In this document: piece by piece, positions 14,393-32,726 of the stretch | Position numbering within the stretch: position 1 is the first letter of the stretch | Layout of the letters: each line of letters starts with the position of its first letter | NCBI GenBank assembly: GCA_964619365.1 | Contig: CAZUDQ010000004.1 | Coordinates: 13,185 to 77,184, forward strand | Reading direction: 5' to 3' | DNA length: 64,000 nt | From: an uncultured archaeon | GTDB taxonomy: Archaea; Altiarchaeota; Altiarchaeia; JAFGQM01 | The notes under the pieces: generated by a model | Told to the model about the DNA's origin: nothing | What the model saw: only the letters and a program-made list of their open reading frames with translations | The model's database searches: none | Position numbers and translations under genes: made by a program

Positions 14393-17305
14393 TTATTTTG
14401 AGTAAGATATGAAAATCTGTGCTCCTTCTATTTCAGTTTTGCTCTTTAAATCCTTTGGGTCGATTTTATCAAGTTCTATTGCACTCGCGCCTGTTGCCTG
14501 TGCTATCTCAGTTTCTCTTTTCTTTATTAGTTTAAGCAGTTTCTCATCTCCGTCAAACCTAAGAACGATTTTTTCTGAAACATCAAGCCCCTCCTTTTTG
14601 CGCATGACTTGTATCTGCCTTAACAAGTCGCGGAGCATACCCTCTTGTATCGCCTCAGGACTCCTGATTTTTGATATCATGATGCGCCCGCTTGAGAACT
14701 CCTTTATCACCGGGGCGTTTGGTTCCTTGTTTGAGAATGCGACCTCATTTACATTTGCCATATTTTCAATTACTTCCCTTACCGTCTCTAGCTTCTCTTT
14801 CGTGTCAACTGTAAGTGCATCAAGCGGCCAGCGCAGTTTGATTCCAGCTTCATCGCGCGCGGCATTACTTGCCTCGACGATTTCTTTTGCAAATTGCATC
14901 TCGCGCTCAAGTGAAGCATCAATCTCAAAGTTGATTTCCGGCCAGCCTGATAAGAAAACAGAGTCGCCCCCCTCTAAGTCGCGGTGTATGTATTCAGCAA
15001 TAAACGGCGCAAAAGGTGCAATCATGCGCGCAGTCTTTGCTATAGCATACCACAATGTCGCAATTGCTGCGTCTTTGTCTTCTCCAGTGGCTGAGACCCA
15101 GGTCCTGTCCCTTATTATCTTGATATACCAGCGGGACAAGTCGTTTAATATGAAGTCTTCAATAGCTTTTGAGGCGCCGAATGGAAGGCAGGCATCAAAC
15201 CCATCTTTTACCAATTTCTCAACAGAAGCCAGTCTTGATAAAATCCACTTGTCCTCTGGTTTAAGGAAGTCCCGTAATCCTTCTATATCGACTACGCCCG
15301 CTTCAGAATAAGTCTTTGCAAATTGGTAGCAGTTCCAAAGGGTGTTCATAAGCCGGAAAGTTATCTTGACATCGTCTGCGTTGAATTTTAATTTTTCCCA
15401 AACTTCTGATTCTGAAACAAGGTAGAATCTTGTGATATCCGCGCCATACTTTTCCATGACCTCGTAAGGCGAAGTGACGTTGTTTAAGGACTTACTCATC
15501 TTGTCCCCTTTCTTATCAAGCACCCATTCGTTCATGAGGATTGTCTTAAACGGAGTTTTCCCAAACATGATTATGCCTTCAAGCATAAGGGTGTAAAACC
15601 ATCCCCTAGTTTGGTCAAGACCTTCTGTTATAAAGTCCATTGGGAAGAACTTGGTAAAAGGTTCTTTTTCCTTAGGATAATTCATCCCGGCCCAAGTTGC
15701 AGCACCAGATTCAAACCAGATATCTGTTATATCAGGTACCCGAGTCATTTCTTTTTGGCAATCAGGACAGCTAAGTTTTATCTTATTGGTATAAGGAACA
15801 TGTAAATCTGGCTCACCCTCAGGCATCTCTATTGCCTTTTCCTTTAACTCTTCAAAGGAACCGATTACTTCACGCGCGCCGCAGGAACATTCCCAAATTG
15901 GGAGAGGTATCCCCCAAAACCTCTGGCGGGATATGCACCAGTCGCGTGCTTCTTTTATCCAATTGGAAAAGCGCTTTTCACCTGCCCAGTCCGGATTCCA
16001 TGTAACTTTCTTGTTCTCAGAAATCATCAAATCTTTGACTTTTCCGACATTGATGAACCACTGGGGCGAGGCTCGTGTAATAATTGGGGTCTTGCAGCGC
16101 CAGCAATGCGCGCAGCGGTGCGTTATCTTTTGCTTTCCGGCAATGGCACCGCGATTTTCTAATTCTTCGATTACAATAGGATTTGCTTTCTTGACATAAA
16201 CGCCCTCAAGCTTCCCGCCTTCCTTTGTGTAACATCCGTTCTCTCCAACTGGCGAAAATGGCGGAAGACCGTATTTCATACCAACAGAATAATCGTCAAG
16301 CCCGTGGCCGGGTGCCGTGTGTACACAACCCGTCCCGTCTTCAAGAGTTACAAAATCCCCCAGAAGGATACTGTGTGTGGCAGGAGCCTCTTTTTCAATC
16401 TCCTTATTTTCAGGAATCCAGTCAGGAAGTATAAACTCGTATCCTACCCCCTCAAGCTCTTTTCCTTGCTTTATACTGTCTTCAAGAATCTCATAATCCC
16501 CATCTTCTATCTCACAAGCTTCCATTACCTGCGGGACTAACTCCTTTGCCATAAGCCACTTTTCATCGCGCGGAACTGAGACCAGACAATATTCATATTT
16601 TGGATTAAGTGTAACACCAAGGTTTGAAGGAAGCGTCCAAGGTGTTGTTGTCCAGATTAGGACAAATTCACCAGGCCTCTCCTTAAGCGGGAACTTGACA
16701 TAAACAGAGTCATCAGTCACGTCACGGTATTCGTCTGTTGCCTCGTAGCCGGCAAGCGCCGTCTGGCAGCGCGGACACCAGGCTGTTGATGCCTTGCCCT
16801 TGTAAAGAAGACCATCCTCCTCACATTTCTTGAAAAACGCCCAGGACGAACTTATATAACTGTTATCAAGAGTCTTATAAGGATGCTCAAAATCCCAGTG
16901 CATGCCAAAACGTTTGTAGAACTCAGTAAATACGTCAACTGTTTCAAGTGCGCGGGTACGGCAGATGTCAATAAATTTTTCTGCGCCATAATCCCAGATA
17001 TCTTCTTTTCGCTTAAGACCAAGCTCCTCTTCTACCTTGATTTCAATTGGAAGTCCATGGCAGTCATAACCCGGCTGAAGATTTACGTCTTTTCCTAGCA
17101 TCACCTGATACTTTAAAATCGGGTCGCGAATAGCGCGCGTCCTTGCGTGGCCCATATGGGGGTTCCCATTCATATATGGAGGTCCGTCTAAGAAGAAGAA
17201 CTTCTCACCTGCTTCATTTGCTTTTTTTATCTTCTCAAAAAGCCCTAATTTATCCCAGTACTCCGAAATCTCCTTTTCGATTTCAAGGGGTCTAAACGGT
17301 TCCAC
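14393..17305 (-). CDS. ileS: Isoleucine--tRNA ligase
   Basis: DGPPY.NG.PHMGH, WTTTPWTLP, GTGCVHTAPGHG, DWCISRQRFWG, EGLDQTRGWF, KMSKS. Confidence 0.97.
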   Translation of the reverse strand: MEPFRPLEIEKEISEYWDKLGLFEKIKKANEAGEKFFFLDGPPYMNGNPHMGHARTRAIRDPILKYQVMLGKDVNLQPGYDCHGLPIEIKVEEELGLKRKEDIWDYGAEKFIDICRTRALETVDVFTEFYKRFGMHWDFEHPYKTLDNSYISSSWAFFKKCEEDGLLYKGKASTAWCPRCQTALAGYEATDEYRDVTDDSVYVKFPLKERPGEFVLIWTTTPWTLPSNLGVTLNPKYEYCLVSVPRDEKWLMAKELVPQVMEACEIEDGDYEILEDSIKQGKELEGVGYEFILPDWIPENKEIEKEAPATHSILLGDFVTLEDGTGCVHTAPGHGLDDYSVGMKYGLPPFSPVGENGCYTKEGGKLEGVYVKKANPIVIEELENRGAIAGKQKITHRCAHCWRCKTPIITRASPQWFINVGKVKDLMISENKKVTWNPDWAGEKRFSNWIKEARDWCISRQRFWGIPLPIWECSCGAREVIGSFEELKEKAIEMPEGEPDLHVPYTNKIKLSCPDCQKEMTRVPDITDIWFESGAATWAGMNYPKEKEPFTKFFPMDFITEGLDQTRGWFYTLMLEGIIMFGKTPFKTILMNEWVLDKKGDKMSKSLNNVTSPYEVMEKYGADITRFYLVSESEVWEKLKFNADDVKITFRLMNTLWNCYQFAKTYSEAGVVDIEGLRDFLKPEDKWILSRLASVEKLVKDGFDACLPFGASKAIEDFILNDLSRWYIKIIRDRTWVSATGEDKDAAIATLWYAIAKTARMIAPFAPFIAEYIHRDLEGGDSVFLSGWPEINFEIDASLEREMQFAKEIVEASNAARDEAGIKLRWPLDALTVDTKEKLETVREVIENMANVNEVAFSNKEPNAPVIKEFSSGRIMISKIRSPEAIQEGMLRDLLRQIQVMRKKEGLDVSEKIVLRFDGDEKLLKLIKKRETEIAQATGASAIELDKIDPKDLKSKTEIEGAQIFISYSK

Positions 17306-17436
17306 GATTCGTTCCTTAGATATTCTTTAGATAATAGAGAATCTTAAGGGTTATTTTTGGCGATTATTGGATAAAAGTTAAAATAGCAAGGTAGGGGTGC
17401 TCTTATCTAGTGCAATAGCTACCCCCTTTTAAAAAT

Positions 17437-17642
17437 AAGATGGGCCTAATGGGATGTTAAGGTGGATGCAACGCTATGGCATATGACCTTAACAGAGATT
17501 AGGACCATCGGGCATAAGCTAAGAAAAAAGAAGATGAGCCTAATGGGACCTTGAGGTGGATGCATTGCCAATACCCATGACCTTAACAGATATTAGGGCC
17601 ATTGCTACTAAGGGTGTAAAAAATAAGATGGGCCTAATGGGA
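17437..17642 (-). repeat. tRNA-linked tandem repeat: two 94-bp hairpin units plus the tRNA 3' end
   Basis: AAGATG(G/A)GCCTAATGGGA starts at 17437, 17531 and 17625 (period exactly 94); units 1 and 2 also share AGGTGGATGCA and ATGACCTTAACAGA.ATTAGG.CCAT and are self-complementary. Confidence 0.85.
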
Positions 17643-17773
17643 TTTGAACCCATGACATCTGGCTAGCTCAGAGCTTTCGACTCCATTCTTGGGAATCTCA
17701 AAACAGACGCGTGGATTTACCACACGCATGCTCGTATAAGACCAGCGCTCTAACCAAGCTGAGCTATAGGCCC
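17629..17773 (-). tRNA. tRNA-Ile(TAT) with a 70-nt intron (17665-17734) at position 37/38
   Basis: Acceptor GGGCCTA/TAGGCCC+A, D-arm GCTC/GAGC, anticodon arm CTGGT-CT-TAT-A|A-GCCAG, T-arm ATGGG-TTCAAAT-CCCAT; strict bulge-helix-bulge (CUUA/UGAG central helix, GAGC/GCUC flanking helix). Confidence 0.92.
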
Positions 17774-17793
17774 ACAAAAATGCCTAATATCAA

Positions 17794-17926
17794 AAAGTAA
17801 GATTTTCTTATTTTCCAACGTTTGCTTATCTTGGGTTGCATAGCAACCCGACCATACTCCTCCGGTATCTCGGAGAAAGTAAGATTTTCTTACTTTTTGT
17901 TTTGCTCATCCCTCGGATATCCGAGG
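17794..17926. repeat. Cluster of palindromes in the divergent intergenic region
   Basis: AAAGTAAGATTTTCTTA(T/C)TTT at 17794 and 17876; GGGTTGC-ATA-GCAACCC at 17833; CTCCG-GTATCT-CGGAG at 17860; perfect CCTCGGATATCCGAGG at 17911. Confidence 0.75.
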
Positions 17927-31622: not shown

Positions 31623-32726
31623 ATGGAAAATAAAACTCTTGAGGATATTTTCCAGCTCAAAGAATATTCTCTTAGTTCTAAGGAAAAGGAAGAAGTTCTC
31701 TTGCCAATCATAAAAGAGGGCGTCAAAAGAGCCAGGAGAAACCCCCAAATAGACTCTTTTTTAGAAAAGGAATCATTTGATTCTGAAAAAATATCTTCCT
31801 TAAGTCAGATTCCTGGGGTACCTATACAGATGTTTAAGGATATTGACCTTTCGACTTGTGACAAAAAGGATATAATCCAGATACTAAAATCCAGTGGGAC
31901 AACATCATCAGAACAAAGCAAAGTGCCGCTAAACCAAGAAACCTTAATCAATCAGGGGCGAGCTTTCCAGAGCAGTATCGTGAATTATTTTGGTTCTGAA
32001 AAACGCGTATTTCTTGTAATAGACCACAAAGGCATAATTGACCCAAAGCGTGAGATAACTTCACGGACAGCAATAGTCCGTGCGCCCTTAAGATATGCCA
32101 AAGAGACATATTTTCTCTTAAAAGAAACGGAGGATGGGAGATTAGTCTTGGACATGGACGTAATCAACGAGGTAATCAGAAAACACTCAAATGATGATAT
32201 AATAGCATTCGGGTTTACTTACATTGTATGGAGCGTTTTTTATAAACAGGCAAAAGATGCAGGCATTTCCTTTAAATTTCCAAATCTCAAGCTTTTCCAT
32301 GCGGGCGGTTGGAAAAAGCTCTCAGAAGAAAAAGTATCAAAAGAGGCGTTCTCAAAAGAGCTTGCGAGACTTTTTGGAATATCCTATAAGGAAGTTTGTG
32401 ACTTTTACGGAATGGCAGAGCAAAACGGGGTAATCTTTATTGATTGTAAAGAAGGCAATAAACACGTGCCAAATTTTGCCAAGGTTATAATCCGGGACAC
32501 ACAGACATTAGAACCTGTACAAAAAGGCCAGACTGGGATAATTGAGATAATGAGTGCCCTTGGGACAAGTTATTATTCTCAGGCCATCCTGACAGAGGAT
32601 TTGGGTGAATACCTTGGCGATGATGATTGTCCATGCGGTCGGCATGGCGAATACTTTAGATTCAAAGGAAGGCTCAAAAAAGCTCCTCTTCGTGGATGTG
32701 GAGATACCTTCAAGGAGAAAAAATAA
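31623..32726 (+). CDS. LuxE-family acyl-protein synthetase
   Basis: SSGTT, FGFTYIVW, HAGGWKK, DFYGMAEQ, ILTEDLG, C-terminal acylation site LRGCGD. Confidence 0.88.
   Translation: MENKTLEDIFQLKEYSLSSKEKEEVLLPIIKEGVKRARRNPQIDSFLEKESFDSEKISSLSQIPGVPIQMFKDIDLSTCDKKDIIQILKSSGTTSSEQSKVPLNQETLINQGRAFQSSIVNYFGSEKRVFLVIDHKGIIDPKREITSRTAIVRAPLRYAKETYFLLKETEDGRLVLDMDVINEVIRKHSNDDIIAFGFTYIVWSVFYKQAKDAGISFKFPNLKLFHAGGWKKLSEEKVSKEAFSKELARLFGISYKEVCDFYGMAEQNGVIFIDCKEGNKHVPNFAKVIIRDTQTLEPVQKGQTGIIEIMSALGTSYYSQAILTEDLGEYLGDDDCPCGRHGEYFRFKGRLKKAPLRGCGDTFKEKK

Follow-up and report, generated by a model that had tools for sequence, protein, structure and literature searches.

The 64,000-nucleotide stretch of contig CAZUDQ010000004.1 analyzed here (hereafter the window), from the GenBank assembly GCA_964619365.1 of an uncultured archaeon of the Altiarchaeota, carries on its minus strand a tRNA-Ile(UAU) gene (17629-17773) followed by ileS, the gene for isoleucyl-tRNA synthetase (IleRS; 14393-17305), and between the two stand tandem units of 94 nt that each end in a copy of the tRNA 3' end. 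The locus raises the question of what such units are, and whether their place before ileS has a meaning. Based on model searches of the window's own 1.2-Mb assembly (G000) and of related genomes, the two units belong to a family of folded elements of ~92 nt each that is restricted to one lineage, a few related tiny archaea; they are not Ile-specific and have no specific tie to ileS, the place of the window pair before this gene being incidental. The family is apparently undescribed: the literature searched (supplements excluded) held no description of such units in archaea, and the tRNA passages of a preprint on Nanohaloarchaea (10.1101/2025.02.15.638363) contained nothing on such repeats.

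The exact 94-bp period behind the tRNA, noted in an original prediction made from the letters of the window, was recovered by Tandem Repeats Finder (17431-17642, period 94, 2.3 copies, 77% matches, 0% indels), and a repeat search resolved two 94-nt copies with 73% mutual identity on the minus strand, to which all unit coordinates below refer. Each unit was said to end in the tRNA 3' end and a T-tract, and this was borne out by a 30-nt block, equal to the tRNA 3' end plus its T-run, found in three copies (17431-17460, 17525-17554 and 17619-17648; 83-93% identity). The copied part of each unit comprises the last ~24 bases of tRNA-Ile(UAU) plus the trailer, and each unit closes with a run of 5-6 T immediately 3' of the rod-like hairpin (hereafter the rod). 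The acceptor-like starts of the 5' arms, GGTCCTA and GGCCCTA vs. GGGCCTA in the tRNA, were also read in the sequence as predicted. Each 94-nt period consists of linker, rod and T-run, the tRNA-proximal unit A (17525-17618) being partly decayed and the ileS-proximal unit B (17431-17524) well formed. The 5' arm of unit A (17592-17603; helix 1 of alignments A2 and A4, compared with the tRNA 5' end) is complementary to the unit's own 3' arm and equals the acceptor 5' strand of the tRNA, extended by the first bases of the T-stem; where the tRNA has nucleotide 3, the arm has a pyrimidine. It is followed by the conserved core, AAGGTCAT ... TCCACCT with a variable apical loop (17553-17584; invariant columns of alignment A2), and by the 3' arm (17533-17548; repeat search and cognate vs. 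non-cognate test), which copies the T-loop end, the T-stem 3' strand, the acceptor 3' strand and the discriminator of the tRNA with a single change (C to T), the 30-nt block including the T-run being 83% identical to the reference copy. The corresponding parts of unit B are a 5' arm at 17498-17509 (fold; alignments A2 and A5), a core AAGGTCAT ... TCCACCTT at 17459-17490 (alignment) and a 3' arm at 17439-17454 (sequence reading; repeat search), the latter identical, together with the T-run, to the tRNA-Ile 3' end and trailer.

The proposal that each unit folds as a rod held for unit B (-26.4 kcal/mol, z -5.96, 0 of 200 shuffles as good; 24 of 24 rod pairs Watson-Crick) but not for unit A (-14.0 kcal/mol, z +0.90, 164 of 200 shuffles as good), in which the inner stem is partly broken and the 24 rod pairs comprise 16 Watson-Crick, 4 G-U, 2 A-C and 2 other; conservation of the stems between the two units was thus only partly true. 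Both units were matched by the covariance model R1 described below, unit A at 17532-17605 with 68.6 bits and unit B at 17438-17511 with 82.5 bits, the best match of the genome. A contig independently assembled from run X2, which may derive from the source sample, spans 17200-17684 with zero differences, and the three DNA runs checked at the locus gave no joints and no copy-number variants. The window pair is real, with one unit well kept and one decaying. The DNA runs matching the stretch are salt-lake metagenomes, which serves as a lead only.

A similarity search of the own assembly revealed other contigs with weak matches to the inner portion of unit B, and these loci were read. Thirteen aligned own-genome units (alignment A2) and the rod structure were then used to build the covariance model R1, which gave 15 matches in the own genome (82.5 down to 35.2 bits). 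Alignment and a model search had been proposed in the original prediction, and copies were found behind other tRNAs both in the own genome and in relatives. Units follow 12 of the 34 tRNA genes called by ARAGORN in the own genome; the tRNAs concerned are Ala-GGC, Gly-TCC, Gly-GCC, Arg-TCG, Arg-TCT, Ser-GGA, Val-GAC, Glu-TTC, Lys-TTT and Thr-GGT, together with Ile-UAU (two units) and Ser-TGA (at least two, interrupted by a contig end). Fourteen of the 15 matches begin 16-28 nt past the tRNA or the preceding unit, the 15th being interrupted by the contig end, while in relatives a same-strand tRNA lies within 500 nt upstream for 27 of 29 units, and all units seen are on the strand of their tRNA. 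Among 41 genomes, R1 matched only in the family of the window's genome (f1, with genera g1-g4), that is, in G000 and six of the seven other members (5-18 matches each), with no match in 33 genomes of five other families. With stricter filters over 61 genomes of the phylum, many of them incomplete, 7 were positive and none of the 53 outside f1. When downstream copies of the tRNA end were counted by one strict test, they were found at 9 of 34 tRNAs in the own genome, and in the complete genome G029 of another family at 2 of 22 as direct copies and at 0 of 22 as inverted copies. A pattern scan of metagenome contigs yielded 14 loci, about ten with true units. The tRNAs that carry units in different genera are Ile-UAU, Val-GAC, Ser-GGA, Glu, Lys, Gly-GCC, Arg-TCG and Ala-GGC; the protein-coding DNA of these genomes gives no match at the DNA level. 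No Rfam family except tRNA reached the gathering threshold in the window, and at E <= 1 the eight unit loci searched gave only tRNA matches and two chance matches overlapping tRNAs; Rfam presumably contains the RtT model.

This distribution bears directly on the suggestion that ileS is regulated through the units, which would act as IleRS decoys or operators in the manner of the thrS leader. Downstream on that strand the first gene is indeed ileS, an ORF whose 970-aa translation falls in Atlas clusters with PF00133, PF08264 and PF09334; it is a neighbour of the repeat family, not a member. The array does lie between tRNA-Ile and ileS on one strand, and tRNA-Ile(UAU) adjoins ileS in G002, G004 and G006 as well, yet the same type of unit stands behind 11 other tRNAs, and at the Gly-TCC and Arg-TCG sites, the two scanned downstream, no synthetase gene comes next. 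The tRNA-Ile locus of relatives is no more favorable to a regulatory role: in G004, ileS starts 14 nt past the tRNA with no unit in between, and in G002 a unit with a different apical module is followed by 600 nt and then ileS. The units have no anticodon-arm mimic, and the ~125 nt that separate unit B from the ileS start contain, as judged by eye, A/T-rich boxes (window ~17330-17385). Because these resemble the boxes upstream of the tRNA-Ile genes of relatives, ileS probably has its own promoter. Since the family follows a third of the own-genome tRNA genes, the units are not an ileS-specific device, and the decoy reading, already contradicted by these observations, is considered extremely unlikely.

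Some further observations concern the tRNA-Ile locus itself. The window tRNA gene (Rfam tRNA, 58.5 bits) has an intron of ~70 nt after the anticodon loop, with an intron of similar length also present in the orthologues of G001, G002, G004, G005 and G006; its anticodon, TAT, was read directly from the sequence, and the G005 orthologue was called tRNA-Ile(tat) by ARAGORN, which missed the window gene without intron search and miscalled it Gln(ctg) with it. Behind this tRNA, G006 (of the same genus as G004) has one unit and, ~850 bp further on, ileS, the interval encoding a PIN-domain protein and a MazE-type antitoxin; G001 has a unit with two extra hairpins after the core, and G005 one unit. 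Adjacency of tRNA-Ile(UAU) and ileS on one strand was found in four genomes of three genera (window 17305-17773; G004:C1 ~31910-32171; G002:C68; G006:C16), and the position of the G004 ileS start codon so close to the tRNA suggests that the two may once have formed an ancestral transcription unit. An IleRS search of the genome contigs gave one relative (L051, 66% identity), which has no tRNA and no unit upstream of the gene, and the closest Atlas clusters of the window IleRS carry the labels Iainarchaeota and Nanobdellota, again a lead only. The interval between unit B and ileS was considered as a decayed third unit and rejected, its fold being no better than shuffles (z -0.75).

The units share one plan, which reads 5' to 3' on the tRNA strand as linker, 5' arm, asymmetric internal loop, middle stem, second loop, apical stem-loop, 3' arm and trailer. 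The linker (~22 nt) opens with the pyrimidine-rich trailer typical of all own-genome tRNA genes and in relatives contains the motif CTTAGC, then CTCG a few bases on. The middle stem contains AAGGT/ACCTT, with one of its positions paired in only 19 of 29 units; the second, asymmetric loop sets CAT opposite CC or TCC, and the apical stem is topped by a variable, purine-rich loop. The core common to the units consists of AAGGTCAT, ~15-17 variable bases and TCCACCTT, followed by 4-5 bases and then the tRNA 3'-end copy, so that a long hairpin with the conserved internal-loop motif AAGGUCAU ... UCCACCUU occupies the place of the T-loop. The arms, in turn, are specific to the adjoining tRNA. The 3' arm equals its last ~16 bases, from the last T-loop base to the discriminator, plus a few trailer bases. 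The 5' arm, which corresponds to the acceptor 5' strand with two or three bases of the T-stem, is base-paired to the acceptor 3' strand, to two T-stem bases, to the discriminator and to the first one or two bases of the trailer. Among the 40 units with an identified tRNA, the mean match to the last 14 nt of the cognate tRNA was 13.3 of 14 vs. 9.0 for non-cognate tRNAs; 37 units matched their cognate at 12 or more of the 14 positions, and the cognate value was above the non-cognate mean in all 40. The outer helix (helix 1; 7 acceptor pairs plus 2 T-stem pairs) mimics the acceptor/T-stem stack of the adjoining tRNA, without the T-loop. Extension of the rod by pairing of its flanks, as in a bulge-helix-bulge, was tried and rejected (duplex -4.57 vs. 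-4.17 kcal/mol for shuffles; 19 of 40 units beat the shuffle mean).

Pairing of the rod was evaluated in three sets of units. The 13 own-genome units had 73.4% of cells paired, compared with 61.7% in shuffles (0 of 500 as high) and 27-41% with slid partners (covariation 0.390 vs. 0.213). The 29 units from six relatives reached 88.5% (shuffles 70.4%, 0 of 500; slid partners 33-39%; covariation 0.530 vs. 0.198), in an alignment that was fitted to model R1 and so favours the structure of the model. The four Ile-UAU units from three genomes reached 90.6% (shuffles 86.4%, 6 of 500; slid partners 24-43.5%; covariation 0.285 vs. 0.200). The compensatory changes in homologs on which the original prediction hinged were present, with two-sided changes at 19 of 24 pairs in the set from relatives and at six pairs in the Ile-UAU set; in G006, where tRNA pair 7:66 is G-C instead of A-U, both arms of the unit carry the matching change. 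Rod pairing is accordingly judged to be real, as strongly supported by covariation, and the predicted structured element built on a tRNA acceptor mimic, putatively a small RNA, agrees with both this result and the anatomy of the units. With respect to the strand that folds, the relatives' set contained 63 G-U vs. 23 A-C cells (37 of the G-U cells in the apical helix), which points, though not strongly, to the tRNA-sense strand, whether in the form of RNA or of single-stranded DNA.

The same structural evidence decides against another explanation, also raised in the original prediction, in which the units would be decaying scars, namely tRNA 3' fragments displaced when viruses or plasmids repeatedly integrated at the tRNA gene and were lost again. 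Like such scars, the units are direct repeats of a tRNA 3' part downstream of an intact tRNA gene, a classical mark of integration (PMC9897764), and such events do occur in the lineage, as shown by a displaced piece of tRNA-Ser at locus L193, which begins within the T-loop and adjoins a HicA/HicB pair. However, the displaced fragments described in that paper border foreign DNA of 9-23 kb that includes an integrase, and share ~44 bp, whereas the units enclose only ~70 nt of conserved, folded, non-coding sequence, with no ORF, between repeats of 16-24 nt. Moreover, the copy begins after the T-loop and is preceded by the conserved core, the 5' arm pairs with the copy and covaries with it across three genera, the same length and plan recur behind 12 tRNAs, and no integrase of the tyrosine recombinase type was detected in the own genome. 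The L193 fragment indicates that a true integration scar of this lineage differs from the units. The scar reading is already contradicted by the conservation of structure, and is considered very unlikely.

The closest known system is the one that the original prediction had named as a parallel, the tRNA-linked repeats (TLRs) of Escherichia coli, such as those distal to tyrT and the rrA, rrB and rrF repeats behind rRNA operons. According to PMC8144298, 22 of these repeats are known at ten loci (one to five per locus), each closing with 18-19 nt that exactly repeat the 3' end of the preceding tRNA or rRNA gene; three are transcribed by terminator read-through and processed, and, although known since 1978, the repeats have no agreed function. 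The archaeal units likewise lie directly 3' of a tRNA gene in the same orientation, share 16-24 nt with its end and occur as one to at least four copies per locus. They differ in their domain of life, no sequence relation was found between them, with no Rfam family at E <= 1, and the archaeal units carry an inverted copy of the tRNA end that makes the rod, possibly a feature of their own, as well as one core common to all. A second precedent is given by the tRNA-like t-elements of Haloferax, which are cut by RNase P and tRNase Z (PMC4326828 and PMC3296008). As in the units, a helix of the 5S rRNA t-element, and of minihelices, mimics stacked acceptor and T-stem beside another RNA; unlike it, the units copy the particular tRNA they adjoin, have no T-loop, usually pair the discriminator and often have a mismatch at 3:70.

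Because the E. coli repeats, with their read-through and processing, and the Haloferax t-elements offer precedents, we tentatively favour, by analogy and with slightly less than even confidence, the reading that the units are an archaeal counterpart of the tRNA-linked repeats, that is, trailer hairpins built on an acceptor/T-stem mimic and arranged in arrays through unequal recombination. Under this proposal the units would be transcribed sense-wise within the tRNA 3' trailer, the tRNA-like base of the rod would let end-processing enzymes or the terminator handle a unit as a further small tRNA gene, and the conserved core may be where a partner binds or a function resides; that the units are transcribed and processed, and that the core has a role, is inferred. 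Unequal recombination at the repeated tRNA ends would lengthen and shorten the arrays, and the match between arm and tRNA would be maintained jointly by gene conversion from the neighbouring tRNA gene and by selection on pairing. The near-identical tandem pair of units behind tRNA-Val in G002 indicates that arrays can grow by unequal crossing-over of this kind. A loss of RNase Z, as the cause of an alternative 3' processing device, was considered and rejected, as RNase Z was found in all 41 genomes searched, the own genome included. CCA-adding enzymes mark tRNA-like RNAs that have a weakened acceptor stem with CCACCA, and the rods may carry tags of this type.

Several observations weigh against the reading of the units as trailer hairpins of this kind. 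The T-loop is absent from the mimic, with the core hairpin in its stead; 24 of 29 units pair the discriminator and the base after it; only 17 of 29 form the pair equivalent to tRNA 3:70, where 22 of 29 have a pyrimidine in the 5' arm irrespective of the tRNA base. By our reading, the linker contains none of the box motifs found upstream of tRNA genes. The outer helix is paired in only 62% of cells in the own genome compared with 86% in relatives, with which the poor fold of unit A agrees, and the G-U excess is weak in relatives outside the apical helix (26 G-U vs. 18 A-C cells) and missing from the own genome (23 vs. 30). The units are, moreover, dispensable and turn over, as seen in the unit-free tRNA-Ile site of G004 and the different module of G002. 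Genome G003 (family f1, genus g3, 79% complete) gave no R1 match, and only 1 of its 23 tRNAs is followed by a copy of its own end. Finally, this reading does not account for the presence of a single core behind many different tRNAs, in each case between two matching arms.

A stable hairpin followed by a T-rich run (5-6 T in the window units), echoing the acceptor helix and T-run of the tRNA itself, would also be expected of back-up terminators or insulators for strongly transcribed tRNA genes, in which tandem copies would stop read-through into genes such as ileS. The units do end with a pyrimidine-rich trailer like that of ordinary own-genome tRNA genes, the unit-free genome G003 has a generic hairpin after 6 of its 23 tRNAs, and the repeats in E. 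coli rRNA operons lie between two terminators (PMC8144298). However, the trailers of the GC-richer relatives have no long T-run, the conserved internal-loop motif and the tRNA-matched arms would be needless for termination, and a simple terminator scan does not flag the units, whose loop exceeds the limit of the scan. Archaeal termination, moreover, is generally held to need oligo-T only. This explanation is regarded as improbable and, like the scar and decoy readings, as weaker. The G003 trailers, read as printed at loci L225, L227, L229, L236, L237 and L241, carry the hairpin CAGCCTTTT..AAAAGGCTG, which is a different family of tRNA-trailing hairpins.

The main rival, which we consider rather unlikely, interprets the units as non-autonomous mobile elements, small hairpin cassettes with tRNA 3' ends as their target. 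The arms of a folded single strand would recreate a double-stranded tRNA end, recombine with the target and leave a copy of the tRNA end on each side, a logic like that of folded integron attC sites or of the attachment hairpin of CTX phage. Such a route would account for both arms matching the target, and would fit the uniform unit length (spacing 91-94) across many tRNAs and genomes, the presence and absence of a unit at tRNA-Ile within one genus (G006 and G004), and the fixed pyrimidine-pyrimidine mismatches and asymmetric loops of the rod. It would also fit the interchangeable apical modules on one scaffold, with mixed-module arrays of four units behind tRNA-Val in L186 and of at least four behind tRNA-His in G004, the toxin-antitoxin neighbours (HicA/HicB in L193; PIN and a MazE-type antitoxin in G006), and two own-genome blocks of 4.8 and 1.9 kb that are flanked by repeats with edges inside a unit. 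The attC sites of integrons measure 60-140 nt and form imperfect palindromes in which certain positions are always unpaired and the tip varies; they occur in arrays and sometimes have toxin-antitoxin neighbours. The units share the imperfect palindrome, the fixed unpaired positions, the variable tip, the arrays and, at times, a place beside toxin-antitoxin cassettes; they differ in that the R'' and R' boxes (RYYYAAC, GTTRRRY) were found in 0 of 40 units and no integron-type integrase was found in the own genome.

Other evidence also speaks against mobile cassettes. Tyrosine recombinase (PF00589) was not detected at E <= 1e-6 in G000, G001, G004 and G006, Y1 transposase was not detected in G000 and G002, and reverse transcriptase was not detected in any of five genomes; these genomes are 63-87% complete, so non-detection does not show absence. 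TnpB was above the cut-off in G006 alone. Among viral contigs, a loose core pattern gave 120 stretches, none of the 80 examined being true by the model, and a stricter core pattern gave a single match, inside a phage gene. There is no sign of recent spread, core-flank identity being 0.70 for units of the same genome and 0.69 for units of different genomes, and clustering of units by genome or by tRNA gave no clear signal (0.70, 0.69, 0.71). Loss through recombination between direct repeats would explain the presence and absence of units equally well, and unequal crossing-over would explain the near-identical G002 pair. Miniature inverted-repeat elements, whose copies carry the same terminal inverted repeats and a short target duplication, are likewise a poor match, because the unit arms vary between copies according to the neighbouring tRNA. 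A further proposal, namely a new kind of hairpin element or small-RNA family that retargets itself, in which one core would spread from tRNA to tRNA and each new site would give a direct and an inverted copy of the tRNA end, with no recognisable recombinase, transposase or reverse transcriptase, is considered unlikely.

The two own-genome blocks were characterized at a finer scale. The larger one (G000:C2:~124677-129580; locus L053) comprises 4.8 kb between direct repeats of ~50 nt that correspond to the right half of the tRNA-Arg(TCG) unit, the repeat edge starting exactly at TCAT of the unit core. A Pfam scan of the block gave a CoA-binding/TrmB regulator, a CobW-type GTPase and an ABC ATPase, and two thioredoxin-like genes and a membrane transporter were read from the translations, making it a block of redox and transport genes; a DNA-level search for its empty site in relatives gave no match. 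The smaller one (G000:C2:106005-108085; L052) lies between two tRNA-Gly(TCC) genes 1.9 kb apart, both with a similar promoter region, linker and 5' arm. The interval holds an opposite-strand gene for a cysteine-rich protein of 619 aa with a CARDB domain, and the tRNA-Gly(TCC) that precedes the complete unit has a weakened acceptor stem (GCGGATG vs. CGCCCGC).

Variation was also recorded in the modules of the units and in the surroundings of tRNA genes. Other apical modules on the same scaffold were found at loci L022/L029 (tRNA-Arg of G002), L027, L032, L044, L045, L058, L047 and L186; the variants include a hairpin around GCTAAG..CTTAG and an extra hairpin pair ending GGTTCA..TGAACC just before the 3' arm, and short module forms stand behind tRNA-His and tRNA-Val in relatives. 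In many genomes of the phylum, among them G029 (L214, L216 and L220), a tRNA gene or the last unit is followed by short repeats of the type GTCTTCGG or GTCTGCAG. Upstream of most own-genome tRNA genes there are two boxes, TTTTTAAT and, ~12 nt on, an AAAT(T/A)AGCGC-like sequence, an arrangement that is probably the promoter of the lineage. The A/T-rich boxes noted above between unit B and ileS form a similar pair. Palindromes composed of AAAGTAAGA, three bases and TCTTACTTT lie upstream of tRNA-Ile (window ~17876-17896 and ~17792-17812), and the same palindrome occurs upstream of tRNA-Val(GAC) (G000:C7 at 3783). This stretch is matched by many metagenome contigs of other organisms, with a depth up to ~69, and the palindrome may be a protein-binding site shared by tRNA promoters.

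An archaeal lineage with a genome of 1.2 Mb thus keeps more than a dozen such units, in which it is unusually plain what is under constraint, namely the tRNA-specific base of the minihelix, the conserved motif of the internal loop and the fixed pyrimidine at the site equivalent to tRNA nucleotide 3. These features offer concrete handles on a protein that would bind the core and on an enzyme that would cut the rod. The units also pose a puzzle of origin, that of one core with arms matched to many different tRNAs, and they carry a warning for annotation, since they resemble tRNA fragments or integration scars and are neither.

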